A program made the translations under genes and the position numbers. This document shows, piece by piece, positions 16,902 to 60,315 of a DNA stretch of 64,000 nt (positions within the stretch are counted from its first letter, which is position 1; the number at the start of each line of letters is the position of its first letter). Under the pieces are notes generated by a model. The model did no database searches. It had not been told where the DNA came from and worked only from the letters and a program-made list of their open reading frames with translations. This stretch comes from Lophium mytilinum. Lineage: Eukaryota. The stretch is taken from NCBI GenBank assembly GCA_010093605.1, contig MU004184.1:2405737-2469736 (forward strand), in the 5' to 3' direction.

Positions 16902-18326
16902 ATGGCCACAACCACCACCACGGCGAACGGCGCTGTTCATTTCACCCAAAATGCGCCCTCAAACACGGCGACAAATCCAGCGACGCCAGAAAACACCTCC
17001 CAAGAAGAGCAAGCCGCCATCCTCGCCTCCGTCATTGCCCTCACAGCCCTCTTCTCCACCACCGTCGAAGCCCTCACCCTCGTCCACCCCTCCGCCTCCA
17101 CCCACGTCCAAAAGCTCGCCCTCACGCGCCTAGGCATCCAGCAAGGCCGCCTCCTCATCTTCGGTGACGCCGTCGGCATCTCCTCACCGCCCGCAAGCAT
17201 CGCAACTCATTTCGTCCCGTCCCACGCCGGCCTGTCGAACCCAGACCCCGAGGCACCGATAAACTTCGGGCCGCGCGATGCACGGCTAGACGAACCCGAG
17301 ATGCGGAAGCAGGTCGAGGAGCGTCTCGATGCCATCGTCAGCAGGCCGGAGAAGCTGGGCCGGGAGGAGCTGATGTCTATGTACGGGCTGAAAGCGCCGA
17401 AGCGGTTGAGCGGCGCAGGGGCGGTGGGCGAGCAGGCAGTCGATATGAACCGCCTTGAAGCTTTCCGCGAGAAGTATGCGCTACTGCAAGATCTGTCACA
17501 CAAGAAAGCGCGGATCCCGCCGAGGCGGGGGATGAGCATGGTGGCGCAGCATTGGACGGTCAAGGATGTGGAGAAGTTTAATGCGTTTATTGGTATGGTT
17601 AAGATGCAGGTGGATCAATTGATTGCTTTGTTTGGCGTCGAGGAGCAGGTGGAAAGGGGGATGAAGATTGATATCAAGAGCTTGGGCTGGCACCCTGATC
17701 TGAGTGGGGCCCAAATGAGGAAGGATTGGAGCAAGCTGAAGCTGATTAGGCAGGCCTGCGAGGGGAACTATCCCGCGTTTGTTCAAGCAACCGACACGGC
17801 GTTGAAGTATATCAACCAAGAGCTGCGGGGAAATGCGAAGCTGCCTCCGTTGGACTATGCGGCGAAGGAGGAGACCCCAACGGCGCCGGCCATCCGTCCG
17901 GAGTCCCCGAAGCGACCGGGGTTGTTGAAGCTGTTTTCGGGGAGTGCCTGGAGCGGAAAGAAGAAGAAGGGCCCGCAAAGGAGTCTGAGTACCGCTGGTT
18001 TGAAAAAGCCCTTAGAAGACACACCGAGATCCATGTCAGAGGACATGCAAAAGGAGTCCTTGGCAGACCTAGAGCCGGTGAGGTCGAAATCGTTGTCTGC
18101 GATGTCAGGAAAGGCTCCGGTCACCATCGATAGCGTCCTGGTTCAATCGAGCTCCAACGACTCAAATGTTCCTGTTGCGGAGGACAATCCGGACGATGCG
18201 CAATATCAACTCTCGCAAGTCGAAACGGCAAAGAGTCTCGTTGATCGACATGATATGTGGGATGGGCCTGGAAGAGTCCCGACCAAGGACATCCGGTGGG
18301 CGGCTAAGAAAAATGCTGAGCGTTGA
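16902..18326 (+). CDS. HeLo (prion-inhibition and propagation)-like domain protein
   Basis: 474-aa ORF. The N-terminus ASVIALTALFSTTVEALTLV..KLALTRLGIQQGRLLIFGDAVGI fits the HeLo pattern (LxxLFxxxVxxxxxI..xRLxxxxxRLxxWGxxVGL), recognised by eye. Confidence 0.7.
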   Translation: MATTTTTANGAVHFTQNAPSNTATNPATPENTSQEEQAAILASVIALTALFSTTVEALTLVHPSASTHVQKLALTRLGIQQGRLLIFGDAVGISSPPASIATHFVPSHAGLSNPDPEAPINFGPRDARLDEPEMRKQVEERLDAIVSRPEKLGREELMSMYGLKAPKRLSGAGAVGEQAVDMNRLEAFREKYALLQDLSHKKARIPPRRGMSMVAQHWTVKDVEKFNAFIGMVKMQVDQLIALFGVEEQVERGMKIDIKSLGWHPDLSGAQMRKDWSKLKLIRQACEGNYPAFVQATDTALKYINQELRGNAKLPPLDYAAKEETPTAPAIRPESPKRPGLLKLFSGSAWSGKKKKGPQRSLSTAGLKKPLEDTPRSMSEDMQKESLADLEPVRSKSLSAMSGKAPVTIDSVLVQSSSNDSNVPVAEDNPDDAQYQLSQVETAKSLVDRHDMWDGPGRVPTKDIRWAAKKNAER

Positions 18327-36388: not shown

Positions 36389-37333
36389 CTATGTAGTAGC
36401 CTTCGCCTTCTCCGCTTCCGCCTTCGTGAACTCATAAAACGCTTTCCCTGCTTCCTCCCTCGCCTTCCCCCTATCCACAAACCACTCAGGCCTCGCAGCC
36501 GCTATCTCACTCTCTAGATCCGTGATTTCGTCCCGATCCACGAGCAAACTGACACCATTCGCATCCAAACCTTTCTCTACCAGATACGCTACCGCGTTCG
36601 CACACGTATAAGCGGAGCTCATATTCACCCCAACCTTCTTCATCTTCGCATCCATCTCTGCAAAAGCTTCCTTCCCAGGCTTATACGTCCCCGGGAACGC
36701 ACCAGGCGTATATGTCATACTTGGTGCCACTAGGCTCACTGCGATGTTGAGCGGTCCTGAGTTTCGTGGTAAAGAGCGTAGCAGGGCGGTGGCCGCGTGC
36801 TTGGACGCGGAGTAACCTGGCATGCCTGAGACGCCTTCGTAGCCAGCCATTGATGACATGATCACGATGCTTCCACCAGAGGGATTCTGGTTCTTCTTGA
36901 GATAGTGGATACCAAGCGCAACCGTGTACATCGTTCCCTTGATATCGATCTCCACCGCGATCATATCCAGCGGTTTTAGGCCCCCCTCGCCATCTTCCTG
37001 AAGATTGAAGTATTGCCCCGCGGGCTCGGCGAGGCCGGCGTTGGGAACAACGATGTCGATGCGGCCAAACTTCTCATATGTGGCAAGAAATGCGGCAGAG
37101 AGGGCGGACCAGTCGGAGAGATTGAGGTTGATGCGCAGGGTACGCGGAGATTCGAGCGGAATCTTGGTTGGCGGCGTTTTTCGGCCGCAGATGAAGGCGA
37201 TGTTGGCGCCAAGGGAGTAGAAAAGCTCTGCGGTTTCGAGGCCAATGCCAGAAGAGGCGCCGGTTATGAGAACCGTTTTACCTTTGAAGGAGTAAGAGTC
37301 GGTGGGGACCTGAATTGCTTCGCCGTTCGGCAT
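36389..37333 (-). CDS. Short-chain dehydrogenase/reductase
   Basis: TGASSGIG, GRIDIVVPNAG and YSASK catalytic motif; 314 aa, intronless. Confidence 0.95.
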   Translation of the reverse strand: MPNGEAIQVPTDSYSFKGKTVLITGASSGIGLETAELFYSLGANIAFICGRKTPPTKIPLESPRTLRINLNLSDWSALSAAFLATYEKFGRIDIVVPNAGLAEPAGQYFNLQEDGEGGLKPLDMIAVEIDIKGTMYTVALGIHYLKKNQNPSGGSIVIMSSMAGYEGVSGMPGYSASKHAATALLRSLPRNSGPLNIAVSLVAPSMTYTPGAFPGTYKPGKEAFAEMDAKMKKVGVNMSSAYTCANAVAYLVEKGLDANGVSLLVDRDEITDLESEIAAARPEWFVDRGKAREEAGKAFYEFTKAEAEKAKATT

Positions 37334-39973: not shown

Positions 39974-40840
39974 ATGCCCCGACATAAGCACCGCCGCACC
40001 CGCCCTCCACCGAAGCGAGACCGTCATATCGAAGCCCTCCCGCCCGCCGACACTATGACTTCTACACCCGGAGTCCCTATAGCGCCCACAGCCCTCCCCC
40101 AAGCTCCTGTCCTTCCCCCCGAGCTCCGCCGCCAAATCTGGCCACAAGCCTTGATTCCCACTCAGCGTCAATGGCTCACCCTCTCGCGCAACGTCGGTGA
40201 CAACACCATCACGATAACGCCTCCGCCTCTTGGTATCCTGCAAGCGTGCGCCGAGTCCCGTAATTTCGCCCGGGAAGAGATGTTAGCGAAAGGCCTCGTC
40301 CTGACCCTGACGACGGCGTGGTGGCCCCTTAGCACACCGAGCGAGATATACTTCAACTATGAGACTGATATTCTCCACGTGCACACGAACCTCGACGGCA
40401 ATCCTCCCAAAGAACCAGGTGCCAGCGAACACAGCGTGGACAGAAAGCTTGCTTCATTGTCCAGTCGGTTGAGCGTCGAGCAGCGGGCTAGCATTAGTCA
40501 TCTGGCAGTCTCGTGCCTGCCGACGACGTACAAGATGAGCATGCAAGAACGGCACGCGGTCGGGGAGCAGTTGCAGTTATTTGAGAATCTGGCCAGTCTG
40601 AGGGTCGTGGTAGTGTATTTACCGGAGGACACGAAGGTAGCTGGGAAGAAGAAGAATTGGAAAGAGCTGGGCAGGCCAGTGAAGACATTGTTTGAGGGGA
40701 TCGTGAAGATGACCACTACGGCGATGAAGCAGAGGTCCGAGTGCTGGGGGCCGTACGTCCAACTTTACGCTCATGAGATTGAGTTGCAGGATGTAGACGA
40801 TAGCGATGATGAGCGGAGGCGTACGAATGCGCGGAAGTAG
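39974..40840 (+). CDS. 2EXR-domain protein
   Basis: LPPELRRQIWPQAL..PLGILQACAESR..IYFNYETDIL is the 2EXR signature; ATG at 39974. Confidence 0.8.
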   Translation: MPRHKHRRTRPPPKRDRHIEALPPADTMTSTPGVPIAPTALPQAPVLPPELRRQIWPQALIPTQRQWLTLSRNVGDNTITITPPPLGILQACAESRNFAREEMLAKGLVLTLTTAWWPLSTPSEIYFNYETDILHVHTNLDGNPPKEPGASEHSVDRKLASLSSRLSVEQRASISHLAVSCLPTTYKMSMQERHAVGEQLQLFENLASLRVVVVYLPEDTKVAGKKKNWKELGRPVKTLFEGIVKMTTTAMKQRSECWGPYVQLYAHEIELQDVDDSDDERRRTNARK

Positions 40841-41842
40841 GATACTGGCTTGTCCAATGAGACTCTATAAATGCCCTATTAGAGAGATAGCTTTCTATGG
40901 ATTTCAAGCCTCGAAGCCTTCGCACTCCCCGTCAAGCAATCTTTCGGACACCTCGCCCGCAAATCTAGCGGATGTGTAAGATTAGTGAAGAGTGGAAGAT
41001 ACCTTATTCTTGCGCGTGTGTCCAGGAGATTTTAGTGCAAGATTTGAAAGATGAAGATAGTCCTCGGGATGTGGAAGTAATACAAGTCGATGTTTTTGAG
41101 GTTGAAGAAGCTGAAAGCCCAAGACTAAGATTGGTCAGGAGCTGCGAATCAACTGCCTAGACTAGAAAAGCTCAAGGCCAACTCTTCATGTCGCATCACT
41201 TGAAAGTGAGCGTTTTGCCTCTGTTTGATCACTTGGAAGAACCCCAGTCTAATCAAGAAAATGATAAAAATAATGTAATCTGTGTAGCGTTCAAATTCAA
41301 ACCTAACAGCAGACGTGGCATGGGAAAAAATGAAGGCCCCTTTGGCAATGTTACGTGTAGAGACGAGTTGTGCAATGCGTAAGGAGTCTAGATCGTAATG
41401 TTTACCTTAACGTACTAACACAAAAATGATCATAGTCCAGTGCTTCTCGCTATATCATTTCCGAATTGAAAGGTGGTGAAAAACCATGTTATATTATGCA
41501 GAGCACCGAGTGGCCAGATGTCATTCAGCCTACAGTATAAGCTTATGAGTTTAGGCAGTCGGGTATACGACAGTTAAAGCTTCACTCTTGCTCTCTAGAT
41601 ACCACTGTAAGGAGCGCTCTACGCTGCATGACTCTACCTAATAAAAGTCCGTGTGGTTTCCACCGCATTAACCTTCACATCGAATACAAGGTTTCGACAG
41701 GTACCCCAAGCAGTGGTAGGGAGTATCCAAACTTATCTCTTTGTACTGCACTTTTAAGCTAAATGACTTACTAAACCATCCCGTGCTCCTTTGAGATCAC
41801 CTAGGGACCTCCAAAAAGATTTTCGAACATAGCCAGCATCCT

Positions 41843-43367
41843 CTACATCTCATACCCATACCGCTCTGGCGCCTGGCCTTTATTCCGCCTCTCAGACCTC
41901 ACCTTCTCCGCCAAATCATAATCCCGCCGCGTCTTTTCGGCTTTCGCTATCTTCTTCGCCGCAATAGCCCTCCGTTCTGCCTTCTCGAGACACTTCGCAC
42001 ATACCCACTTCTCATTCTCCTTGGGTATCTCGGCTTCCTTCATTCCAATACACGGGATATGATACCACTCAACCTCACACTTAACTCCCTGGCACATCTC
42101 GCAGTCTTTCTCAAACACCCCGCAACTCTCGCAGCCCTTGTTCGTATTATCGCACTTGATCATAGTGCCGCCAAAATCGTGGAGCCCGCAGGTGCAGCAG
42201 TGAACCTCACCTACTTGCTCGGTGCAGATAGGGCAGAACCAGTCACGCTCGTCGAGAAGCTGCTCCGGGGTAACGGTGATGCTAATGCAAGAAAGGTGGA
42301 AGAGGGGATCCCCGGGGTGGTTCTGAAATTTACATCGCATCAGCTTCTCTCCGGCGTTTTTGCGACCTTGGCAGAAGCAGTGGTTCTCTAGACTACGGCA
42401 GTCGGCGCAATACCATGCAGTGTTGCCGCGTGGGCGACGGAGAAGACCGGCGCATGATTTGAGGTGGGACGTCTTCTTGCACCATTTGTTGTGGCATGAG
42501 ATGAGGCTCTCGGCTTTCTTCTTCCCGCAATGGCAAGCGGACTCGGCGTTGGGTGGAGCCGTCTGAGCTCCTTCGTTGGTGGTCAGTTTTCCGAAGGAGA
42601 GGGTGAAGTTGGTTGGCGAAGCTTCACGACGGCGCAGGTTTAGGGCGGAGCGATTCGGAGGTTCTGCAGTAGTTCTATCGTACTGTTGTCGAAGGTGAGA
42701 GCGCCGTCGTGCACGATTGGATTCGTCAGTCATTTCCGGACTCCGACTCCTTGTCCGCCAGCTAGGCTGAGCCACCTTGTTCGATCCATCGCGCTTCAGT
42801 GCCTTGAACATATTAAACATCCCGACCTCCCGGTCCCCTAATTCACTAAAGCCACCCGCCTTACTCATCTAAATTACTAGCTGGTTATCCTTGAAGTTCT
42901 TTACGGCGAACTTATTCGTCTGCCAAGCATTTGGATTAAATGTCGTTACAGTTAGTGTAATTGTTCTTCCTGTGCTGCTTTACAATATCTATATACTTTG
43001 CCTTCGCCTCATTAACTTGGCCCTATAGCTGCTCTTAATACTTCTCTAGTTTCTTGCGATATTCGGCCGGCCCATCAGGTTGTGTCCGAAGGCTCTTGAA
43101 TCTAGTGATGTTACGAGCCTTTTTAACCTCCGGCTAAGAGTCAACGGTGTTGAGCAAATATATCTTGCAGAGAAACTTGCGAGAATGTTTACTTACCCTC
43201 GCAGTTGAGTTATGGTCCACGCAGTTCGGAGCGCAGAATGTAGGCTTGGTTATATGAATCTAGTGCTTACATTGGAGTTTGTGATAGTAACCGCTGTATA
43301 ACCAGGGGGTAGTAGTTAGTGTAGTCCTAAAGTTGTGGGTTTTAAGGAAGTGGGCGTCGAACGGCAT
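41843..43367 (-). pseudogene. Multi-PHD family copy 1; 5' third destroyed by RIP, three PHD fingers still open
   Basis: ATG at 43367 gives MPFDAHFLKTHNFRTTLTTTPWLYSGYYHKLQCKH*IHITKPTFCAPNC, matching the paralog N-termini. Stops at 43260, 43134, 43035 and 43023 plus a frame shift. ORF 41843-42868 holds the PHDs. Confidence 0.8.
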
Positions 43368-44598
43368 TATGGCTGTATGGGTGCTACGTGCATTTAGTGG
43401 AGTAGAGACTAAAAGTTTAGGGTATAGGATTGAAGTGGTTGTAGAAAAGTAACGAGTTCAAAGCTAGGAAATAAAGCAACAGAGTAAACGGATTATCAAT
43501 GCACAGGCACCCTAGTGAATTAGAGCACCCTGTGTTATCTTACTAGATGCTCCTTAGCTTCAATGCGCTCTTACTTGTGTTTTAGGGAAATAATGGTCAC
43601 GGTGAATCTGAAGAGGGGCCTTGCATTGTTACGGAAAAAGATAGGGCTAGCTCTTGACTGATCTTGGAGGCTGATTGAAATCAGAGACTCTGATATTCTC
43701 AAGATGGGACGATTATAGAATAGTGTACGGACGGTTACCCAACCATAACTTCTGTGGCTACGACTATGTTCGGAGCAAACCCCGAGACTAGCGGGAAACA
43801 GAGACCTCAGGACAGAGAGTTTACAGGATAGACGAAACAGCTCATTCTTTCACGTTAGTACCTCAAATCACCGTCGAGCGCTTACGCATGCTGATCCTCT
43901 TTTCTCGCCTTCCTTCTCGCGGGTCATAAGGACCATAAAAATATATCAAGCGGAGGCCAGATTAGTACAACGATGAGAGGTGTGCACTTTGGCTTTACCT
44001 CCTTGTTCGATGAGATGTTGTTGGTCCTGCTAGTGAAATAGTCGCTGTATGACCTCATGAACGTAAGCGTGAGCGGGCAAGCGAAAGGTGTAGTGGGCTA
44101 CTAGCCGAGCACATGATCACTAAAACGCAAGCGGCTCGGGCATATTGACAAAGGTATCGATTTCATCACGGTGAGGGTCATGGAGGGCATCAATTTATCA
44201 GATTTATCTCGAAAGCACTTCACATTTAACCCGTTAATCCAACAGAGTAAGAGTCTATTACTATGGAGGTCTTTCGTGACCATAAGATCATAGAGATAGT
44301 AAGCTACAAGGACAAGCCCAGTGCTTCACACTAAGCCCTACAGTTGAGATCAGGGACCTCAAGCCGCCTTGCTTACAGCATCCGAGAACGAAGATTCTGA
44401 AAAGATTGTGAGAAAGCGACCTGTAGCGAGGAATCTGATCACTACTCTCACAAAACCGCGCGTAAAGGCAGTCTCCTTCATCATGCGATTTGGAGAGACT
44501 TGCTCAATAATCGTTCACCGCTATAGCTCTCGGTCCGTCCCGCTAATAAGTTTGTCTGACGCCCCCCCATGAGCGCCTACCATATGTTATCGAGCCGT

Positions 44599-46212
44599 CT
44601 ACTGTTCCATATCCATTTGGCGTATTCCTTGCGCCAAGTCGCCCACATCGACGTCGCGAAATCGCTTCGGTAGCAAACCCTTCGTTGCCCGCTCTGATCG
44701 CCTCAGCCCTGCTACTTCGGGCTTATGCTGTTTCACAGCGCCTTCTTTCGCCTTCTCCGCTGCGAGGCGCTTGCATTGAGCACGGTCTAGGCACTTCCTG
44801 CACTCCCACTTTTCTTGCTTTGGAACTTCCGTCATGCCCACGCATGGAAGGTGATACCATCCCACAGGGCATCGGTCGTCAGAGACTCGGCAAAGCGGGC
44901 AATCTTCATCGTAATGGTCGCAATCTTCACACCCTCGGTTCTCGTATTCACACGCAATCATAGCGATGCCGAAGTCAGGAAGCCGGCAAACACAGCACTT
45001 TGCCGCACCTTTGTTGGCCAAGTCGCAAGAGGGACAATACCAGTCCTGCTTGCCTAGTCGCTGATCTTCCGTGACAGTCAGCTCTACGCAGGATAGGTGG
45101 AACTGAGAGGTCTTGCAGCCACGTCCGTGACAAGAGATTAGTGCGTCCTCTTTGCGTCCACGGCAGTAGCATTGCTCCGGCAGGTCGCTACAGGACGCAC
45201 AAAGCCATCGCCTAGACGGACGCTTCTCAAGCTTAGCGCACGACTTCAAGTGATAGGTCTGCTGGCACCATTTGTTGTCGCAGATGATAACGAACTCTTC
45301 CTTTGAAGATCCGCATGGGCAAACGGACTTTGAGGCTGGGAGATTGGGATTTCGAGTGTCGTTTTTTTCGTATTGGGGCTTGGGTTTCAGCGACATGCTA
45401 TCGAACATGCAATGCATGTCCGTCGGCGAGGCGGAACGGGGTCGCCATTTACCACGTCGGTCATTCTGCGGCTCGTTTGCGAATCGATCGTGCATACGCC
45501 TGAGGCCTCGTCCAGGGGACCGCTGTCGAGTTCCATCCGAGTTTGGATTTGTCGACCGGCCATCTCGACCAGGGCTCCTACTTCGATCGCGCCATGGGCG
45601 TTCAGGGGCGACAGCTTGACGCATTTTTGTGTCCGCCTTTCGTGCGGCTCGATCGAATCGCTCAAGGATGTTGAAATTTTCAGTCTCCTCCAACTCTCCC
45701 AGCCCGTCGATTCCGTTCTTGGTAGTCATGTCCTCCAATCTCGCAGCGAGTTTATCCCCATCAAGGTCATCTACAGCGAATCTGTATTTATCCCATTCCT
45801 TGATCTCGAAAGAGTCGCTACCAACGTAGTACTCCCTCGATTTGTTAATGCCTTCAAAGTACTCCAGTTTGACCTCCACAACACGCCTCCACAGCTTACG
45901 GCGCTCAGCAAGCACTTCTCGAATTCCCTTGCCATTACCGGCAACCAATGGCTTACGTTCCTCGGCCCTAGCAGCCGCCAAGGATTCTGCCACCCCTTCC
46001 CAAGTCTCCATGACCTTAAGCATACATATTACGCAAAGGAACCTAGGATTCTGCTCGTTGCGGGCCATGTGTGGGTAAGGCTCGGAGCAGTTCGGCGCAC
46101 AATAGGTCGGTTGGCTGGTGTGTGCCCAATGACCGCATACCAGCTTGTGGTAATTAGCCAGGAAGATGCAGGGCACGGTCGTAGGCGTGGTTCCAAACTC
46201 CCTTGCTGCCAT
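44599..46212 (-). CDS. Multi-PHD family copy 2 (N-terminal Cys/His domain + 3 PHD fingers)
   Basis: ATG at 46212 (MAAREFGTTP). Three C4HC3-type fingers ending WLCASC, WYCPSC and WECRKC; the third is ING-like (MIACE..GWYHLPCVGM..PKQEKWEC). Confidence 0.85.
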   Translation of the reverse strand: MAAREFGTTPTTVPCIFLANYHKLVCGHWAHTSQPTYCAPNCSEPYPHMARNEQNPRFLCVICMLKVMETWEGVAESLAAARAEERKPLVAGNGKGIREVLAERRKLWRRVVEVKLEYFEGINKSREYYVGSDSFEIKEWDKYRFAVDDLDGDKLAARLEDMTTKNGIDGLGELEETENFNILERFDRAARKADTKMRQAVAPERPWRDRSRSPGRDGRSTNPNSDGTRQRSPGRGLRRMHDRFANEPQNDRRGKWRPRSASPTDMHCMFDSMSLKPKPQYEKNDTRNPNLPASKSVCPCGSSKEEFVIICDNKWCQQTYHLKSCAKLEKRPSRRWLCASCSDLPEQCYCRGRKEDALISCHGRGCKTSQFHLSCVELTVTEDQRLGKQDWYCPSCDLANKGAAKCCVCRLPDFGIAMIACEYENRGCEDCDHYDEDCPLCRVSDDRCPVGWYHLPCVGMTEVPKQEKWECRKCLDRAQCKRLAAEKAKEGAVKQHKPEVAGLRRSERATKGLLPKRFRDVDVGDLAQGIRQMDMEQ

Positions 46213-47469
46213 TTTGCCAGTGGAGTAACGCTTCGACCGGGATGTTGGAGGAGAAAGATAGAATGTTTGGGAGTTGGGATTGACCGATTGAGTGGGGTGG
46301 TGGGTGTGCTGCTCAGTGGATCTGTGTTTGAAGCCGCGGCTCTGTGGTGCGAGAGGTCGCCCTTTGTAGTCCCACGGAAGAGGTGAAATTGAAGAAACAG
46401 ATCCGGCAGCTGCTCTCCGCAACATCCTTGTGCATTCACATGCACCAGAAAGACATATACGCCATTTCTTGACTGTGAATCATCCGGTCGAAAGGATCTT
46501 ACCACTGAAACCAGTGTTATGAACTACGGCAGCCTGATTTTTAAACGGGATGGCGAGCTCGTAGGCTCAGCGACCATCTAGAATGGTTGCCTTTGGAGGA
46601 GAACTGAAGCTTTTTGAGAACCGAAGCTATCATCTCATCTCTAGTTAGAGCTTGGGGTAGTGCGGTGGTATTAAATGCTTATTTCTTGATTCTTCTATTG
46701 CTTTAGGCATCGTTACCATTTAAGCCAGCCTACTCTCAACTTTCTTTACGTCAGGTTGTTATGATTGTAGTGTTAGTGAGCTGAATATATGCTAAGCCGA
46801 ACACTTTGCTGCTCCGTGTGAAGTTTACAACAGCTTTCGGCTTTCGAGATTCTCGATGTAGCGATGACCTCTTGTACATGAAATCCGCCTACGACCACTA
46901 TTAAGGACTTACCAACTTCTAGGGTTGGTCACTAAGAGGTCGATATAGAGCTATGCTCACGGAGCTGCATGATATACAACACATAGAGCCCCTCATGTTC
47001 AATGCACTGAAAGGTATACGGCACTAGAAAGGATATAGCGGCTATCCCACACCAGCGCAGGGACACGGCGCTGAAATATCTGCTTAAGAATGCATTGTTC
47101 AGAGCATGTGTTCTTTGTGGTCGCTCACAGTTTGTCCCTTGCTTGCTTCCAATACGGATCTTGAACATCACATCAGTACTGGCAAACACTTTCCGTCGTC
47201 ATCCACTAAGTCACTAGATCGCAGTCTTGAAGGTAAAGGGCACTGCATACGTAAGGACAATCTACCCAGCAATGAATGAATTATTCTCTAATATCGCAAC
47301 GTTCATATGCCACTTCCCAAACACAGCGAGTTATCGGGAGGATCAAAGATCTATCCGGTGGCGTCGGGCTTCATTACTCCGCCATGAGATCAATGGACTG
47401 CAACTATGGATACATCTTTAAAACATAGTCAAGAATGAGTACCTCTGCTGGGGAGACATAATGCCCTCT

Positions 47470-49158
47470 CTACTTGAAAAGCTTCTGCAAGCCCTCAGCC
47501 AGTCCATCCACATCAAATCCCAGTCGCGCAGGGGCCTTGCCCTTGTTTTCTCGCTCGGACCTCCGCTTCGCTGCTTGTTCAACTTCTTTGCGCTTTTGCT
47601 CGTCTTTTACGGCCTTCTTCGCCTCAGCAACCTTTCGTTTCTTCTTTTCAATGCATTTACCGCAAGTCCACTTCTCGTCCTCACCAGGTACTTCGTCCTC
47701 CTTCATGCCAATGCACGTGATATGGTACCACCCGACAACGCATTTTGAGCTCCGGCAACCAGCGCAGTCGTCGTCATACCGATCGCATTCACCACAGCCC
47801 GTCTGCGAATTCCGGCTCTGACAGTTTGGACAGTCATCGTCATAGCGATCGCATGCATCACAGCTCTTCTTTGCGTTCTCACACTCGACCATCAGGGCCC
47901 CAGCCATGCAGAGTTTGCAGATGCAGTAGTGCTCATGCTCTGCCTTTGCGCACGAGTCTTCCCAACATGCAGGGCAGGACCACACTGCTTCGCCATGGCG
48001 CTGAGCCTGATTAACCGTGCCCTTGACGCAAGAGAAATGAGAGAGTCGGCTTTTGGACTTGCACTCAATGCTCTGACATCGCATAGTGGGTTCGCTGGCA
48101 GGCTTGCGACCACGGCAATAGCAAATGTCCTTCAGCCCTCGGCAGTCGCCGCAGTGCCATCGCCCTTTTGGTTTGCGTAGGAGCCCAGCACAACTCTTAT
48201 AATGGAACCGCTTGCGGCACCATTTGTTGTGGCAAATAATGATGGGCTCCTTGATATCCTTCCCACACTCGCAGTCTACCTTGGGATTGGGTTCGCCTGC
48301 CCTGACCTCTTTTGATACGGTACGATCTGTTCCAGCATTTGGATCCACCGTAAGCTGACCAAATATCTCCATCACATCCGCTCTTAGAGGTGAGATCGAG
48401 CGGCGCCTGTACTTCGGATTGGCGGCCGGATCAACAGCATCTCGATCGTGCATTCGACGTCGAGGCGATCGATCACGGCGTCTTCCCCGCCGGCTACGCT
48501 CGTCATCAGACATACCACCGGGACTCCGACTACGATCGCGCCACGCGGGCTGCGGCACTCGGGGAAGAGATGAAGGCGGAGGCTCGGTCAAGCCCGGGAT
48601 TCCCAGCTCTCGCTTATCTTCCACAACCTTCTTCTTGTCTTTCGAGCCTTCGGAACTAGCCATTGCGGCAGCTGCGACATCATTTTCAAAGTCTCGCCGG
48701 GCAAAGTCGTACTCGAGCCAGTCATCCGGGGAGAACTGGTCGCAGAGTGTCTCGTAGGCCCTGTTGCCAGTATGGCGCTTTATATGCTCGAAGTTCATCT
48801 TCTTAAGGAAATGGTATGCCTGCCACAGGCCATGCAGTTCTTCTTGAAGCTGATGACGATTCTTTAATGGGATCGCGAGCTGAACCCTGACCTGTTCGGC
48901 CTTGGCCTTAACACGGGCTATGTCTGGCCATGACTCCAATTGTTCCGAGAGACAGGCCTCACAAAGAAAGGGGCGGGAGCGTTCGAGTGGGCCACTCGTC
49001 GGGTACGGTTCGACACAATTCTCAGCGCAGTATGTCAAAGTGCTCGTGTGTACCCAGTGCTTGCACTCGAGGATATGATAATGGCCGTAAAAGATGCAGG
49101 GTGTCGTACTAGGCGTAATCCCAAAGTGGGCGGCCTCCATCAGTTTTCCAGACATCAT
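47470..49158 (-). CDS. Multi-PHD family copy 3
   Basis: ATG at 49158/49155; same architecture; YCICK..MVECEN..GWYHITCIGM..WTCGKC; TATA near 49290. Confidence 0.85.
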   Translation of the reverse strand: MMSGKLMEAAHFGITPSTTPCIFYGHYHILECKHWVHTSTLTYCAENCVEPYPTSGPLERSRPFLCEACLSEQLESWPDIARVKAKAEQVRVQLAIPLKNRHQLQEELHGLWQAYHFLKKMNFEHIKRHTGNRAYETLCDQFSPDDWLEYDFARRDFENDVAAAAMASSEGSKDKKKVVEDKRELGIPGLTEPPPSSLPRVPQPAWRDRSRSPGGMSDDERSRRGRRRDRSPRRRMHDRDAVDPAANPKYRRRSISPLRADVMEIFGQLTVDPNAGTDRTVSKEVRAGEPNPKVDCECGKDIKEPIIICHNKWCRKRFHYKSCAGLLRKPKGRWHCGDCRGLKDICYCRGRKPASEPTMRCQSIECKSKSRLSHFSCVKGTVNQAQRHGEAVWSCPACWEDSCAKAEHEHYCICKLCMAGALMVECENAKKSCDACDRYDDDCPNCQSRNSQTGCGECDRYDDDCAGCRSSKCVVGWYHITCIGMKEDEVPGEDEKWTCGKCIEKKKRKVAEAKKAVKDEQKRKEVEQAAKRRSERENKGKAPARLGFDVDGLAEGLQKLFK

Positions 49159-50004
49159 GACGGCGATTGGGCACTTATTACACAATGATGTTACTGGCTG
49201 TCGATTGGGCGTTGTGAAGAAAGGTTGCCGGTGGTGGTGTGGTGTGAAGAGAAGACGGATTCTGAAGAGAACGAACAGAGACCTGGGCGATTTATAGGCA
49301 GGGAAACAAGTGCAACTCACAAAAACCAGTGAATGTGCACTCGATCGTGGGCCCACTCCATGCAATACGTAATTCACTGCGCCAAGCTATCCTTTCATAA
49401 TCTACCCTCAACTTTTCTACAGGAACAAGCCAGAAGTCTGGCCAAAGGTTTGTGCATACTCATTTAGCACTGCATGTACTTACCCCATGGGGTCTTACAC
49501 GTCTAGATACAGTGACAAGTCCCTGGCAGTGTAAACTAGATTGCCCCATGGCTCATTGACTGCTACCTAGCCTGGCCACCCCTCACAGTCCAGGCGGCAG
49601 TGAATCCGTGTGCCGTGACTTGCGGCCTATCATTATAAAATACATATAAGGGACTTCCCGGAGAACTTTTCCGTCTTGAAAAACAACCCATGCTTGACCG
49701 GGTCGAACTAGGACTCAAAAGCAATGTACGCTTGTCTAGGATATCTATGTATACAGACAATGCGGTACAAGAAGACGAGGCAAGGTCACTCAATTCTGGG
49801 AGTTGGTAGACGCAGAGCGCTCGTAAGATACGCAGCGCCAAATAATCTCAGACATTACCTACATTTCGAAGGCTTCCCAGGAGGGATGCAAGAGAATATT
49901 AGTTTTCAGAGACGTAGGTACCTTTGTAGATTATTACAGCCATCAACCTAGTACCTGACCATTATCTAGATTTCACAAGGCAGGGAGTACATCGAAGCCG
50001 TCTC

Positions 50005-51078
50005 TCAGTTCCACAGCTTCTCAATGCCCTCCACCAAGCCCTTCAAGTCGAGCCCAAGCTGTGCGGGAGCGTCGCCCATCACTTCTCGCTCGGACCGGCG
50101 GTGTTCACCCTCATCATGTGTTTTCTTCTTACCTTCATCCTTCGTGGTAATCTGGGCAGCAGGCGCTCCGCGTCCCTCGCGCTCGATGCACTTCGAGCAT
50201 ACCCAGGTATCGTCTTGCCCTGGTTTATCCTCAACAACGCAAGTCGCATGGTACCAGCCAACAGGACATCTGGCCTCTTGACAAGCCAGGCAATCGTTGT
50301 CATAACTGGCACATCCTTCACACCACTTGTCGGCGTTTTCGCATTCGATCACGGGCTCATCGGCTGGCTGATGGCCTCCACAGTAGCAGGCTTCAAGGAG
50401 ACCACGGTCCTCATCGTCCTCCGAGTTCATACCAGGGCTAGGACTGCGATCTTGCCAGGAAGCTTGTGTTACCGGTGCTGGAGCAGCTGGTTGTTCCATC
50501 TCCTTGAACATGGCGAAGGGTCCTAGCGCTCGCTGCTCTTCAGCAGCTTGTTGCTCTTTGCGCTTGATATCTGCAAACGTTCCCGTCCGGACGAATGCGT
50601 CTTCCTCGAGGTCCTTTACTGCGAAATCGTAGTCCGACCATTGGCTAGGCGAGAATGTGTCGCCATGTGTTTCATGAATCGCCTTCCTCCGAAGCTCTTT
50701 GATGTTTTCCTTCTTCATGAAGTCGTAAGCTCGCCAAAGGCCGCGCTGCTTCTCTAGAAGTTGTCGTCGAGTCTCCTTCGGCAGTGCGTTCCCAAGCTCA
50801 GATGTCACCCACTCAGCTTTGGTCTTTGCGTGTACTATATCCGGCCATAGTTCTATCATTTCCATGGCGCACTCCTCACAGAAGAATGGTTGCGAGTGCT
50901 CCTGCGCGTGGGTATCCGGGCACGGCTGACGACAATTCTCGGCACAGAACGTGGGAGCCGCGGTGTGGACCCAGTGGTTGCATCTAAGTCGATGATAGGA
51001 CCCGAAATGTATGCAAGGGGTCGTGCTTGGAGACGTCCCAAAGCTCGTGGTATTGAGTAAATTATGATTCGAAGACAT
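50005..51078 (-). CDS. Multi-PHD family copy 4 (single hybrid PHD)
   Basis: 357-aa ORF with the same N-terminal domain and C-terminal tail but only one finger (CYCGG..VIECEN..GWYHATC..WVCSKC); TATA near 51250. Confidence 0.85.
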   Translation of the reverse strand: MSSNHNLLNTTSFGTSPSTTPCIHFGSYHRLRCNHWVHTAAPTFCAENCRQPCPDTHAQEHSQPFFCEECAMEMIELWPDIVHAKTKAEWVTSELGNALPKETRRQLLEKQRGLWRAYDFMKKENIKELRRKAIHETHGDTFSPSQWSDYDFAVKDLEEDAFVRTGTFADIKRKEQQAAEEQRALGPFAMFKEMEQPAAPAPVTQASWQDRSPSPGMNSEDDEDRGLLEACYCGGHQPADEPVIECENADKWCEGCASYDNDCLACQEARCPVGWYHATCVVEDKPGQDDTWVCSKCIEREGRGAPAAQITTKDEGKKKTHDEGEHRRSEREVMGDAPAQLGLDLKGLVEGIEKLWN

Positions 51079-51975
51079 CCCTGTGGTGAGATCTGTTCTC
51101 GTGCGGAGAAACTATAGTAGTCGAGGTAGTCGAGCCTTCGAGTCCGGAAGGGTTGCGAGAACTCGGTCGTGTGGTGGATAATGTGGTGTGGACGATAGTC
51201 TGTTGGGGTTGAATCTTACGAACGCTACAACTCTGCAGCAGGGGAGGCATTTATATGGTGAACATGTAAAGAACATTCACAGGACATACTCCGTTCCCTT
51301 GTGCACTCAACATTCACCGGTTTGGCCAAGCGTGTACGATCGTGGCAAGGCTTAGCCAAGTGGCGAAGAACAAATCGGATCTCGGGACTAGAGCCCGTGT
51401 CTAGCTCCATACCATGATCTGAGCGGGCCTCGTGTTGAATGTAGGCCATAGCGTTTGACATTAGGCGGAGGACAGCCTAATATACAGGAACGACCCTATT
51501 GTGCTACCGTGAATGCTTGCTGTAGGCGATTGTCAAAATCCAACACTTTGTAAGTATACTATTGGTTCTGAATGCTGAAGTAGAATCAAGTTTGCAATTA
51601 CAAAGATGAGTCGGAGTACCACAAATAGTCGTATAGAGGTGTAGAGATAGTACATGATGATGCATTCAAGCGTCGTTATCCTGTCGCGTCCAGGAAGTTT
51701 GATAGTGAAGAGCGACAGTAGATTCGAATGCATATAAGATCATCAGTCATTGCATTTTCGTCATCTCATCGTGAAGAGATTTTGCAGGGCATTGAGCCTA
51801 CAGGCGGAATGGCTACGCAGGGTATAATTTAAGTTTGTGACAGATCATCCCAAGGAGGACTCGGGTCGTTTGAGGTCCTGATATCTCCGCGCCCTGACTT
51901 TGAGAGTGACTAGATGCGTATGCAGATCGACGAGGATGCAATAATACCTCACAAACTGGCTCAAGATAGCCACTT

Positions 51976-53926
51976 TCACACCTCTTTGCCGGCAACGTGC
52001 TCCTTTTCCACCCCTTGTAGCCTCCTCTCAACCCGTTCGGTGAAGAACTGGTTAAACGGCTTCGTGCAAAACGCGCAGATGATCGCCACGGCCCCGAAAG
52101 CCAGACTAGAGTAGAACACCATATGATATGCCTTCACGTTCCCATCCTGAACCGCCTTCACATATAACGGAACCCTGTCGGCGGCGATCCCGGGGATCTT
52201 TGCGAATGTGGCAACAGCACCCAGGAGTCCAGACTTGATGAGGAGAGCCGTCGATTTCGCAGAGAGGTGGTCTTCGACCGCCAATTTTCTTAACCTGGGA
52301 GGTATCTCATCCGCCTTGGTGCTTGTCAAGACGCTAGAAAAGATAGCGAGAGCCACGCTGCCCAGGGTCGAGCGACATGACCCAAGCAGGCCACTGGCGA
52401 GGCCAAGATCCGCAGGAGGAACGCAGAAGGGCACAGCGACAATGCCTACAACTTCAACGACGCCGACGGCTAGAGCGCCGAGGCAGCAGAAAACGATGGA
52501 CATGGTGCGCGTGGAGGCATCGGCGGCGGCCATAGCACCGATAAAGGCGCACATGAGCAGAGCGGCAATGCGGAGTTGCCAGTGACCGAAGCCGAAGCGA
52601 ACTGTGAAGCCTCCGAGGACTTGACCGAAGGCGATGGAGCCTCCAAGCGTACCAGACATGAGCCCGATCATGACTTGCTTGTTTTCGTAGAGAGAAGTGA
52701 TCATTTGCGGCCAAATGACGGTCAGAGAGTAGTAGAACATCTGCAGAACTGTTAGAGTCAGGCATAAAAAAGCCAGCACTTAGTACGTACGCTTGCGACG
52801 GATGCGACGCCCACAAGCGCCATAAAGCGACCGTTCATAAAAAGGGACATTGGAATGAGAGGGTATTTCAGCGGCATGTATATTTCTGTCACGGTTAGCT
52901 TTTCGTCCATGACGCATTCTGAAAGTATATTTACCATAGAAGGCGAAAGCCACAAGTATAGCAAATCCGACAACGATTGGAACGATGACATGATACGAGT
53001 CCCAAGGATAGAGGCCTCCGCCCCAAGAGAGGCCCAACACGAAGGATGTGAGCCCGCTGGCAAAGAGAACGATTCCTCCCCAATCTAGTTGACGGAGCTG
53101 CTTGGCCATGCTCGTATCCTCGTGGAGCTGCTTGTGTGTTGGAGGATGATAGCAGATAAAGAACAAGATGCCAGACATGGAGCAAGTGATGAGATTGAGC
53201 CAGTAGTTCCAACGCCAACTAAGAGCGGTGTACTGAGCCAGACAACGGGCGATGAGAGGGCCAAAGGCAGCAAGTGGGCATGTTGTGAGAAAGAGGAGGC
53301 CGGTAACAATGCCGCGATGCTTGTTTGCGACGAGTTCCATGAGGACAAAGCTGAAGCAAGTCTGGATGGCTCCAGCAAGGCCCATGAAGACGGTGCCCCC
53401 GAGAATGGTGTTGATGTCCTTGGCAGTGCCATTGATGCATGATCCGATGATTCCAAGTATAGCTCCCGTGATCATGAACCACCGGCGTCTGATTGTAGGT
53501 CAGTAAATGCGCCATAGATCGTGCAATGCTTCAAGAAACCCACCCAAATATGTCGCTCAACCGTCCAACAAGTGTCAAGCCCACTCCTCCACAGAGTGTC
53601 TTTATCACGGGGATCAAGGCATAGTTCGGATCGGGGCCTAGGTCGGCATTGATTATGGTAATGGTATTGGCGGGCAGGATATAGCCTATGATGGGTGAGC
53701 GGGAATCAATTGAGGTCAAACGAGTTATAATACCTAGGTAGAGGCCCTGAGCCATGAATGCAACGGCAGCAACAGATCCAATGAACCGCCAGTTCCGATA
53801 GTAGCCTTCTGGCATATCTTCGAGGTCGCCGCCTCGCGCCTCTTCGGCGATCTCTAGTCGAGTACCATCGGTGGCGTGCTCGATATGGACATTGTGAAGA
53901 GAGGGCTCAAGTTCTTTCTCGTCCAT
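51976..53926 (-). CDS. MFS efflux transporter, TRI12-like; introns 53686-53733, 53489-53543, 52886-52934, 52741-52790
   Basis: GYYRNWRFIGS, INADLGP, GRLSDIFGRRWF, LDWGGIVLF and WGG.YPWDS. Four canonical introns join the ORF pieces in frame. Confidence 0.9.
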
Positions 53927-54661
53927 GATGGCAGCGAAGGAGTAAAGTAAATTCGCAATGGACTTGCTGTACGAAGGGAAGGCGAAGCTTAAGTTTGATG
54001 CAGATCTACATAGTGAGACAGAGTGTTCATATACTATTGCTGGCCAAGGGTGGCGCATGTCCCCAGATTTTTCATCCCCGCACTGGGTAGCTTCGTTAGC
54101 AATTCTGGGGTTGGAAACAACATTCCGGGGTGCTCGATTTCTCGGATAACGATTTGCTGCCTGTTGAATGCATGTTGGCGATCATTTGACACTGCTTAGT
54201 GGCTGGGCGATGATTCATTGCTGGAGGGACCAGTCTACGATAGGTACAGGTACCGCGAGTCAGTGTACTATCAGTAGTCATCGCTGCTGTCCTAGTGTAA
54301 TCGGTGGCATATCACGATGAAGCTGGTGGGTGCGAATGACTTGTAAACGCGCAGGCCATCTACGACACGCCGTTTTCTCATTCGCAGGGTAAAGATTAGT
54401 GGAGAGAAGACATGCGTAGCCTGAGGAGCTACAACATCATGCTTGATAAGTTCTAAAGTCTAGGATGGTTGCAAATACAGAGTTTCGAGACAGATGGAAG
54501 GGGGTTGAGATGGAGGTGAGGCAAGGCAGCTGGAGTCGTGGAATGTGACGCTAGGCCCAATCGGAGTGTGCCAAGCATCCCCCACTTCCTCTCCTCCGAC
54601 GTCCGCAGACCTTCACCCATTCACCCATCTGCATCCATCTCGTACACCACCATGTCCATTC

Positions 54662-57443: not shown

Positions 57444-60315
57444 ATGGCACCGACTACCGATTCCCAGCCCCAAGCTGCGTTGGCTTGCCAGCTCTGTCGC
57501 AAGTGAGCCTCTTCCCCAGCGCTTTCTCCACCCGCGTCGCGTCTGCAAAGCATGAACCCCTTTCGACCTTGCGTTCTCCTTGCCTCAATTTGAGCATGTT
57601 TTCGCATGCGCGCCGTGACTGAATAGCTGCTGACTTTTAACGCAGGCGCAAAATAAAATGGTAGGTCTGATGTTCTAGCTGCAGTCGCCGCATTTCTGAC
57701 TCCAGTCCCTCCAGTGGTCGCGAGCTTCCTCGGTGCGCAATATGCGTAGGCTCACAGCAAGACTGTCAATACCCACCAGGACCCTTGAAGCCAGGCCCTA
57801 AAATCGGAGCATCGCAGCGAGGTCGCAAACGACAAAAGACCAATCCCTCGGAAGAGAGTTCTTCCCAGCCGCCTCGCAATTCAGATGGCGATTCCACGGA
57901 CGCGAGGGGCCCCAACGCGGATCCCGCGGAATGGGAGAATCGCCCTGCAAACACTGGGGGAGCCAATTCATCACGATCCAACGAGTTTACTGGAAACCAG
58001 GACTTCGCAAATCGCCGCGGCTCCTCCGTTTCGAATACTGAGCTTGGAATCCAAGCGAGGGCTGCACACCGGCCCTCACAAGCGGGACTGGATGGGCGCA
58101 GGCCACTCTCGCCCGCGACCACTCCGTCTACCGGGAGCCCAAGAGACCAGCTGAACATGCAAAGTCTTTCCTTCATCATTCATCCTTCGCACGAAACTTG
58201 CACCCCCGAGACGGCCAAGTCCGATTTCGGAACCCCATCCCGAACAGAACCCGTGACGTTGATCATTGCGCGCACCTGGGTTGCTCTTGGCGTGAAGCCT
58301 CAGGTCATCTATCGATTGTACGTTGCTGAATCCTTTGAAAACGAAGATAATGCCATGCTTACCTCTTTTCTAGGGTCGACTTGTATTTCGAGAATTTTAC
58401 AGCCTTTTCGTTATTTCAACAACCGGTTTTCGAAGTGAAAGCGCAAAATGTCGCCTCATCTCTGCATCTCCACGCTCTCTTAGCTGCCATGTTCTCATTC
58501 GCGGCCCCCTTTTATGTTCCCGACACCACGAGCCCGAACGGCTTCCCCGATCCTGACAACCCTGCTGTACCAAATTCTGAACACTTTGCCGACCTCGCGG
58601 AGAGATTCGTGCAAGAATCGCTCATGAAGCTCGAAGATGAATCGCCGCCCCTCTGTTTACTCCAAGCCCTGATACTAACCACATATCGAAAGCTCATCAA
58701 AGGCGCTCGTGGTCGAGCGTGGAGATCACTTGGTACTTGCGTTCGCCTAGCTTACGAAATGAACCTCCATTTGATCGACTCGGAGGGCATTGGGCGAGGA
58801 GATGCACCACAGTCTCAAAGTCGAGATCAATGGGTAGTAGACGAAGAGCGCCGGCGCGCATGGTGGGCAGTTTGGGAGATGGACACTTTCGCCGGAACTG
58901 TGCGGAGATGTCCAGCCGCAATAGATTGGTCGCAGAACGAAACATACCTCCCCGTCGACGACGAGGCATTCTTTAGCGGAATTCCGAAGCGGAGCTGCTA
59001 CTTGGAAAGAAATGCGATTGACCGATGGAAGGCCTTGCATGAGAGCGGGAACGAGTCCTCGAAAGCCTGGTTCATCATCGTGAATTCTCTCATGCGAGAA
59101 GCACAGATGCTTGCAAGCCCCCGGGGAGTGCCAATTTCTATATCAGGGGCGTCCGATGATCGAGCATCGTCTTCAAGGACTGGCTGGCGCATGCTCCCGG
59201 GCAAAGCTTCTAAAGACGTGTCTGAAAGGCTGGGAGCAATATCGAATGCCCTTCGCTGTATCTCTCTGACGCTCCCACCATCCCTTAAGTACCGGAACCA
59301 ATATTTGAGCTTCGAGTCCACAGGACCCGACGATGCGAATTCCCCGCGCAGGCTGCATAGTGCCATCTACAGCATTCATCTCATGATTGCGCTAGCCAAG
59401 CTCATGATACATCACTATTACGTCTTCTCGGTGCCACCAGAAAACACGCCAACTGTTTCAACTGAGGATCCTACCCACACTACAAAGGAGAAATCTGGAC
59501 ACTGGCAGTATCGGCCTTCTGGACTCGCCCTTGACCAGTACTTCGAAGCCGCCGACGACATCCTCACCATCATTAACAGGAGCCACGAAGACCATGTCCG
59601 CTACGTGAATCCATTCCTAGCAAGCACCGTATGGCTTGCGGCGGCAGCTCAACTTATTTCGAGAGTTTTTGGCTCTCCGAACACGGACGCAAACCTTGCG
59701 AGGTCCAAATTTGAGGTCCTGTATCTGCTGCATAAGCAATTCGTCAACTACTGGGGCATATTCACGGCATTGCAGGAGAACTTGAACACTCTTGAAGCAC
59801 GTCTTGAACGCATCAGCGCACGACTGAATGGAAGTGAAGATCCGGGTTCTCGGCCTATGACTAATGGGCAGAGTTCGCGCCCGAAGACAGCGGCGAGCAA
59901 TCACACAAACCCCAACGACTCGCAGACGGCGTCGAACAACACCACCAATCATGCCTCTCCAAACCTCTACCACATTCCTCGCTCCGAAATTCCCCCATTC
60001 TCGACTATGAACCACCTACAGCTGGTCCAAAGCCCGCGCCAACAGCAGCAGCATCCACAACAACAACAGCAGCAGCAAGAGCACACCATGCACGACCCAT
60101 TTGCTCATAACATTGGAAACTTCCCTTCGTTCGGAGGGGCTCAGCAGAACGAGATGTTGGCCGGATCAATGGATGACCCAAATACGTTCAATGCGATGCA
60201 TGATTCAACTGGCGATATGATTGACGATCTGGACTTCAGCATGAGCCTGGATATGAGCGAGAGCGAGCTGCAAGGGTACTTGGGGGGCGTTTTGTCCGGT
60301 GCATTAATTGGGTGA
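57444..60315 (+). CDS. Zn(II)2Cys6 transcription factor with fungal-specific TF domain, 4 exons
   Basis: Spliced N-terminus ACQLCRKRKIKCGRELPRCAICVGSQQDCQYP; EERRRAWWAVWEMD; poly-Q and acidic C-terminus. Confidence 0.92.

Follow-up and report, generated by a model that had tools for sequence, protein, structure and literature searches.

PHD fingers are among the best understood readers of histones, and the cargo that they bring to chromatin depends on the domains to which they are fused. The closest described proteins are those of the ING/Yng/Png family (human ING1-5, yeast Yng1, Yng2 and Pho23, and S. pombe Png2), in which one finger accompanies the ING N-terminal domain (PF12998). According to PMC4225485, W238 and M226 are cage residues of ING2 (the tyrosine is printed there as 'Y315'), and PMC3395697 gives Y215 as critical for binding to methylated lysine 4 of histone H3 (H3K4). 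TAF3 and BPTF are further readers of the trimethylated form (H3K4me3), and the PHD finger of TAF3 uses a Trp/Met-type cage, again as given in PMC4225485. Here we describe fingers of the ING type in a different setting, within a 64,000-nucleotide (nt) stretch of the fungus Lophium mytilinum (GenBank assembly GCA_010093605.1, contig MU004184.1, positions 2,405,737 to 2,469,736 of the forward strand), referred to below as the window and numbered from its first letter. Four long, paralogous open reading frames (ORFs) lie head to tail on the minus strand and span positions 41843-51078. Their predicted products join PHD fingers to a conserved Cys/His module that is recognised by neither the domain library nor any solved structure, and what is new, judged from the sequences, is that putative readers of the PHD type are coupled to a partner module not described before and contain a nested insert that probably binds zinc. 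Full-text searching of the literature, judged by listings and abstracts, found nothing on such a family, which does not show that it is absent from print.

Copy 3 (47470-49158, 562 aa) is the most complete of the four and serves as the reference; all of its parts are given here on the minus strand. The Cys/His module (48934-49131, aa 10-75), with invariant C21, H28, C32, H34, C44, C48, C66 and C69, is followed by a helical hairpin and WxxYxFAxxD segment (48664-48933, aa 76-165; helices are modelled at residues 78-94 and 101-130) and by an AWRDRSRSP block (48520-48546) in which W, R, S, S and P do not vary among the four copies. Three fingers follow, PHD1 (48142-48273, aa 296-339), PHD2 (47965-48123, aa 346-398) and PHD3 (47653-47931, aa 410-502), and the protein ends in a basic tail (47473-47652) in which a basic helix (containing KKKRKV in copy 3) precedes an invariant R-S-E-R and G..P, within the motif RRSERxxKGxxPxR, and a short amphipathic end. 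We take the KKKRKV of copy 3 to resemble a classical nuclear import signal. The RRSERxxKGxxPxR motif presumably resembles the arginine-anchor motifs of the CENP-C type that bind the nucleosome acidic patch; its spacing differs, and the idea was set aside. By exact look-up, copy 3 is the deposited 561 aa protein P0026, which starts at the second Met and is encoded, as is the protein of copy 4, on a 2.48-Mb contig of the same genome.

The ORF of copy 2 (44599-46425, minus strand, 608 aa) contains the N-terminal module, the helical part, the arginine/serine (RS) linker, three PHD fingers and the tail, and its start is probably the Met at 46212 rather than that at 46425, since the former aligns with the Met of the other copies; the protein would then be about 537 aa long (44599-46212). 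Copy 4 (50005-51078, minus strand, 357 aa) has the module, the helices, a variant block SWQDRSPSP, a single chimeric PHD finger and the tail. It corresponds to the deposited 286 aa protein P0028, which begins only at Met72 and so lacks the Cys/His module. The deposited start probably lies downstream of the real one, since the 71 codons before it continue the reading frame and the complete ORF gives an expectation (E) value of 1.5e-37 with the module profile. Copy 1 (41843-42868, minus strand) is a 341 aa ORF with the RSRSP block, PHD1, PHD2, a PHD3 with its Cys insert and a shortened tail, its N-terminal domain surviving only as a decayed remnant at 42869-43367 on the same strand. In end-to-end alignments the other copies are 39-45 % identical to copy 1 over their full length, identity among copies 2-4 amounts to 39-49 % in their N-terminal 165 residues, and likeness at the DNA level is confined to short coding blocks that repeat every 1.9-2.95 kb. 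An initial annotation of the window, made from the letters alone, had proposed four head-to-tail paralogs without introns, and both points are borne out by the four continuous minus-strand ORFs, by their 39-49 % identity and by the agreement of copy 3 with P0026. The helix ending in WxxYxFAxxD, the W-R/Q-D/T-R-S-R/P-S-P block and the basic tail that it listed are all present as well. Two of its shared features need narrowing: the motif FGxxPxTxPCI..YHxLxCxHWxHT..T[YF]CAxNC..FxCxxC is intact in copies 2-4 and has decayed, outside the ORF, in copy 1, and the count of up to three PHD fingers applies to copies 1-3, with one chimeric finger in copy 4.

The ORFs were scanned against Pfam and read at E<=1, with curated gathering cut-offs for family calls. 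The PHD2 fingers of copies 1 and 2 scored 33.2 and 22.0 bits against PF00628 (PHD), for which the cut-off is 24 bits, and copies 3 and 4 gave no match. A regular-expression scan together with the alignment placed the C4HC3 pattern (Cx1-2C...Cx2-4C...Hx2-3C...CxxC) in the last finger of every copy; copies 1-3 show it in PHD1 and PHD2 as well. Among PDB sequences the nearest relatives of PHD1 and of the back half of PHD3 are the fingers of the ING/Yng/Png family. PHD1 of copy 3 has as its best matches among PDB sequences ING2 (2g6q_A, E 9.1e-7), ING1 (2.1e-6) and Yng1 (9.7e-6), and the back half of PHD3, in which CP[VI][GE]W[YF]H..C[VI]G[ML] is conserved, matches ING3 (E 3.2e-6), ING1 and ING2 with E values of 3e-6 to 1e-4, in agreement with an earlier assignment of these fingers to the ING type. 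A basic stretch follows the finger in the array, a further likeness to ING. The array differs in having three fingers rather than one, preceded by an RS linker and by a putative zinc module at the N-terminus that is unrelated to ING proteins, and the scan found no ING N-terminal domain, SET, JmjC or RRM in the four ORFs; the first three had already been reported missing. TAF3 matches PHD3 of copy 2 (E 1.1e-4) more weakly than do the ING proteins, and the TFIID or NURF domain context of TAF3 and BPTF is lacking from the array. The PHD region of copy 4, including its Cys insert, also matches PHF5A/Rds3, the Cys-rich PHD-like knot of SF3b (E 0.003), a borderline match without full-length likeness that is probably driven by Cys composition. 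In the ESM Atlas the PHD part falls near generic PHD clusters only (score <=0.81), which is a lead and no more. Over their full length the proteins were found to match neither a characterised family nor an ORF of a transposable element. A match of that kind was among the grounds for refutation given in the initial annotation, which knew of no described fungal family with this architecture.

Cage positions were mapped by counting along the ING2 sequence in the match to PHD1 of copy 3, in which Y215 directly precedes the first Cys, the third Cys comes three residues after M226, and W238 stands four residues beyond the fourth Cys. In PHD3 these places are taken by Y, M and W in copy 3 and by C, M and W in both copy 1 and copy 2, and the last finger of copy 4 has A, V and W; the earlier statement that the last finger retains M and W thus stands for copies 1-3 and fails for copy 4. 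PHD1 of copy 3 is ING-like in sequence without Y, M or W at these places. A second departure from ING is an insert between the third and fourth ligands of PHD3, where ING2 has four residues. Its length is about 43 residues in copy 3, where the motif C-x2-C-x6-C-x2-C occurs twice in tandem, the duplicated units sharing 33 of 45 nt, and about 21-28 residues in the other three copies, which have the motif once. The insert is probably an extra zinc knuckle.

The N-terminal module matches no Pfam family at E<=1. We built a profile from the three intact copies and searched it against all 1.84 billion protein cluster representatives. This returned 25 proteins at E<=1e-3, namely two orthologs (discussed below) and 23 further clusters, none with a PHD finger, whose members are 156-425 aa long and carry the module at varying positions. 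A curated Pfam cut-off was reached by none of the 24 module proteins scanned, five of which show sub-threshold chance rows, and a further search with the N-module profile gave nine matches, none with a precomputed Pfam partner domain. An alignment of 26 sequences (the three window domains, the ortholog P0001 and 22 of the 23 distant matches; not included were P0002, without the module, and P0003, with its three modules) contains 12 invariant columns, C21, H28, L30, C32, H34, T38, C44, N47, C48, F64, C66 and C69 in the numbering of copy 3. Eight of these are Cys or His and are candidate metal ligands, a number sufficient for two zinc ions. Copies 2-4 keep all 12 and score E 1.5e-37 to 4.7e-31 with the profile, which across the window finds nothing else beyond the remnant of copy 1. 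The module thus appears, on these matches, to belong to a wider family of PHD-less proteins of the Dothideomycetes, the class of all of the named species, and it is not the private feature of these genes for which it had been taken; a search with the N-terminal domain alone, proposed at the same time as a way to find its spread and its partners, has yielded the first and no Pfam domain for the second.

Named members are P0017 (an unnamed product of Zymoseptoria tritici ST99CH_1E4), P0032 (AC578_10410 of Pseudocercospora eumusae) and P0003 (KAF2491939.1 of Lophium mytilinum itself). The last, 300 aa long, consists of three tandem Cys/His modules and nothing else, and therefore the module can stand and multiply alone. 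The PHD-less proteins share with the array the sequence P-C-x6-7-H-x-L-x-C-x-H-x3-T-x5-9-C-x2-N-C-...-F-x-C-x2-C followed by helices; they differ in that most are Ser/Pro-rich and 150-440 aa long, with the module in mid-protein and, towards the C-terminus, an S[RK][IL]P motif. Among those relatives that share the YH-x-L-x-C-x-H form of the motif, P0012, P0023 and P0025 also have RS-x-SP blocks, and the C-terminus of P0012 has an R-S-x-R-x2-K-G followed by an amphipathic tail like that of copies 2-4. A more distant subfamily (P0005, P0006, P0008-P0011, P0014-P0016, P0018, P0019, P0024 and P0029-P0031) is marked by HxGxPCTxGALDHxLxCGHKV... and is Ser/Pro-rich; its S[RK][IL]P motif lies within about 10-20 residues of the C-terminus, often recurs near the N-terminus, and may be a short linear motif. 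The ESM Atlas clusters nearest to the N-terminal domain are unnamed Ascomycota proteins (score up to 0.91, a lead only), and a scan of metagenome contigs with the module alignment gave 189 pattern matches, none of which was confirmed. A word-indexed protein search with the whole of copy 3 returned only the ortholog cluster and says little, as the word filter was crowded out and copies 2 and 4 themselves were not returned; the same holds for a search with a profile of the RS linker, PHD fingers and tail, which gave one match among 8000 scored candidates. No PHD-bearing relative of the module beyond the orthologs was found in these protein searches, of which the word-indexed ones are weak evidence for absence.

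We infer from this distribution that the ancestral protein consisted of the two-zinc Cys/His module, the helical hairpin, a disordered linker containing RSRSP and a short conserved C-terminal tail, and that the lineage of the window acquired a cassette of ING-type PHD fingers, the fusion gene then being duplicated in tandem. The reading that we prefer, to which we give roughly even chances, is that these lineage-restricted genes encode nuclear chromatin adaptors. The C-terminal, ING-like PHD3 would dock on the N-terminal tail of histone H3, with further contacts to the tail from PHD1 and PHD2 and with retention on chromatin by the basic tail. Copy 3 would bind H3K4me3 because its Y/M/W cage is complete, and the preference of copies 1, 2 and 4 would be altered or weaker because theirs are incomplete. 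The module and helical hairpin would carry the ancestral binding activity of the family and bring in the partner, protein or nucleic acid, of the ancestral PHD-less proteins. The RSRSP block is likely to be a phosphorylation or import element.

Several observations weigh against this adaptor reading. A PHD finger exceeds the Pfam cut-off in just one of the four copies, and in a single one (copy 3) is the cage complete; PHD1 is devoid of cage residues in all three copies that possess it, and the Cys-rich insert of PHD3, of 20-40 residues, stands between two of its zinc ligands. Half of copy 1 has decayed, and the counterpart of copy 3 in a close relative is read as two ORFs, P0001 (468 aa) and P0027 (78 aa). 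The direction of domain gain rests on few sequences, from searches whose word filters were crowded out or narrow, and it is from a few dozen proteins that the taxonomic range and the age of the fusion are judged.

Some of these points would suit orphan ORFs, specific to this lineage, that are decaying or without function, in an array on its way to loss. Copy 1 provides the clearest case. Its remnant N-terminal domain begins at a Met at 43367, upstream of the ORF and in a different frame, and contains seven in-frame stops before the ORF start (11 of 189 codons are stops if the frame is read on), with a frameshift following the stops; Cys ligands have been lost, among other changes through PC to PW and through replacement of the second Cys of CxxC by Tyr. 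The remnant has a moderate signature resembling that of repeat-induced point mutation (RIP), with TpA/ApT of 1.54 against 0.68 in the ORF, (CpA+TpG)/(ApC+GpT) of 0.87 against 1.19, and a G+C content of 42.6 % against 54.9 %. Matches of the domain profile remain at 43137-43259 (E 1.7e-7) and 43263-43457 (E 0.009), and a domain lost to RIP-like decay is what these traces indicate. Copy 4 has lost two fingers: it has no PHD1, and the front half of its one finger agrees with PHD2 of copy 3 at 12 of 24 residues, against six of 24 for PHD3, and the back half corresponds to PHD3, a pattern that looks like an internal deletion between two fingers. The split of the relative's copy 3 falls in the second CxxC-x6-CxxC unit of PHD3 and reflects either a true frameshift or, the repeat being short and internal, a faulty assembly. 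The array moreover lies in a variable region with a RIP-like block of 25 % G+C at 1-4000.

What tells against decay of the whole array is the constraint on what is left. Synonymous differences between the paralogs are saturated (proportion of differing synonymous sites, pS, 0.68-0.95), and non-synonymous differences (pN) are 0.27-0.58, for which reason the copies are best seen as old, constrained duplicates; the ratio of non-synonymous to synonymous substitution (dN/dS) is 0.17-0.57 in the seven comparisons where it is computable, pS exceeding 0.75 in most. Despite this divergence three long ORFs have stayed open, as has what is left of copy 1, with no stop in 341 codons against seven in the roughly 165 codons upstream, and all zinc ligands are invariant. 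In the close relative the orthologs of copy 3 (P0001 with P0027) and copy 4 (P0002) lie together on one contig of 4280 nt, and therefore at least this pair predates the split of the two lineages. They are 88 and 86 % identical to their counterparts; by part, the ortholog of copy 3 is 95 % identical in the zinc module, 93 % in the helices, 97 % in the tail (P0027) and 83-88 % in the PHD fingers, and the finger of the ortholog of copy 4 is 82 % identical. Taken together, the comparisons indicate that the copies are real, old and constrained protein-coding genes that have been retained for a long time, and we regard general decay as rather improbable. The same figures do not bear out the description 'rapidly evolving' that the genes had been given.

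Within the adaptor reading the RSRSP block has a minor role, and a different weight could be put on it. Were the RS/RD-rich linker an SR-type domain recruiting splicing or mRNA-export factors, or were the N-terminal module to bind RNA, the proteins would link RNA processing to chromatin. The WRDRSRSP block is invariant and accompanied by further RS and RRR runs in all copies, and the RS-x-SP blocks that go with the module in P0012, P0023 and P0025 point the same way. However, neither RRM nor any other RNA-binding Pfam family was detected at E<=1, and the RS blocks are short and the RS dipeptides few, where SR proteins have an RRM and a long RS domain with far more of these dipeptides; the block may merely serve for phosphorylation or contribute to a nuclear import signal. 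We consider a role in RNA processing unlikely.

The fold of the module bears on a third possibility, that it is a divergent cross-brace finger of the RING or PHD type and that the proteins are E3 ligases or plain multi-PHD proteins. An AlphaFold2 model of the 165 aa N-terminal domain, made on the 26-sequence alignment, has a predicted local distance difference test score (pLDDT) of 85.3 and a predicted template-modelling score (pTM) of 0.73. It shows a beta-hairpin at residues 25-42 bearing H28, C32 and H34, then a short helix whose start is the C66-x2-C69 knuckle, and the long helical hairpin described above. Foldseek found nothing in the PDB at E<=1e-3 with this model, and with VIA-align the best Z score was 8.4, every row falling within the helical hairpin (residues 60-136), a widespread arrangement. 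The module alone (aa 10-75) models at pLDDT 80. Its eight Cys/His ligands, which include a C-x-H pair, would be compatible with a cross-brace, and five of the seven weak Foldseek rows obtained with it are RING domains, but all have E values of 3-9, probabilities of 0.01-0.02 and template-modelling scores of at most 0.22. None of 48,161 chains reached Z>=2 in VIA-align, a result of limited weight for so small a modelled domain; profile-profile comparison with the family's own PHD profile gave a probability of 0.4 %, and the best match of the module profile among PDB sequences had an E value of 8.1. The order C-H-C-H-C-C-C-C, with spacings x6-7, x3, x1, x9, x3, x11-25 and x2, fits neither the C3HC4 nor the C4HC3 consensus, and we hold a cross-brace finger to be distinctly unlikely. 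The original description of the N-terminal domain as unrecognised accordingly survives searches of Pfam, PDB sequences and known folds. A homodimer prediction of the domain with zinc included, run without controls, scored 0.00, which gives a dimer no support and counts neither for nor against it.

With the adaptor reading retained, a bolder version of it may be offered tentatively, and we think it somewhat doubtful as a whole: that the C-H-C-H-C-C-C-C module is a new binuclear zinc-finger fold of an unnamed family, restricted to the Dothideomycetes on the few members that are named, and that it captured ING-type PHD fingers, one of them with a nested zinc knuckle, to give paralogous readers of methylated H3K4 with graded completeness of the cage, which route an activity to marked chromatin. 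The module is common to unstudied proteins of a fungal class that includes major crop pathogens; its structure and its partner would define a new zinc-finger family and could show how histone marks are relayed to an effector in this lineage in particular. With their differing cage residues and numbers of fingers, the four paralogs provide a natural series for how the composition of a cage sets its specificity. Should the genes prove unexpressed, or their products not bind, they would be one more lineage-specific family.

An origin in a transposable or other mobile element, or membership of a genome-defence or meiotic-drive system, is very improbable: tandem multiplication in a variable region beside RIP-like DNA, with HeLo, 2EXR and F-box-like genes in the wider window, might suggest it, but positions 40800-52000 contain no inverted repeats and have direct repeats inside coding sequence only, no word of 9-12 nt is common to at least three of the four upstream regions, the four ORFs have no transposase, integrase, reverse transcriptase or any Pfam family except PHD at curated cut-offs, copies 39-49 % identical speak against a recent burst, and the orthologs of copies 3 and 4 adjoin in the relative. 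For the 'system' and the role in 'genome defence or drive' suggested in the initial annotation we found no evidence of any kind.

The genes around the array are unrelated to it, and nothing links them to it functionally. Directly downstream lies a 288 aa 2EXR protein (39974-40840, plus strand; PF20150, E 1.3e-10), of a family of unknown function, and beyond it a short-chain dehydrogenase (36389-37333, minus strand). Directly upstream is a split TRI12/MFS efflux transporter (51976-53475, minus strand), whose two consecutive ORFs (51976-52740 and 52780-53475) correspond to adjoining stretches of the TRI12 profile and are followed by a third consecutive minus-strand ORF at 53531-54058; the TRI12 gene appears to be interrupted by introns. 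Farther away are genes for a protein with a fungal transcription-factor domain (58489-60315, plus strand), an F-box-like protein (4729-5847, plus strand) and, in the same variable region, a 474 aa HeLo protein (16902-18326, plus strand; PF14479, E 1.5e-26), HeLo being the pore-forming cell-death domain of fungal incompatibility proteins. The composition of the window is that of an ordinary fungal sequence outside the AT-rich block at 1-4000 (24-25 % G+C), where a strong bias of the RIP type is seen (TpA/ApT 1.75, (CpA+TpG)/(ApC+GpT) 0.12); this block is probably a RIP-degraded repeat at the edge of a gene-bearing region.

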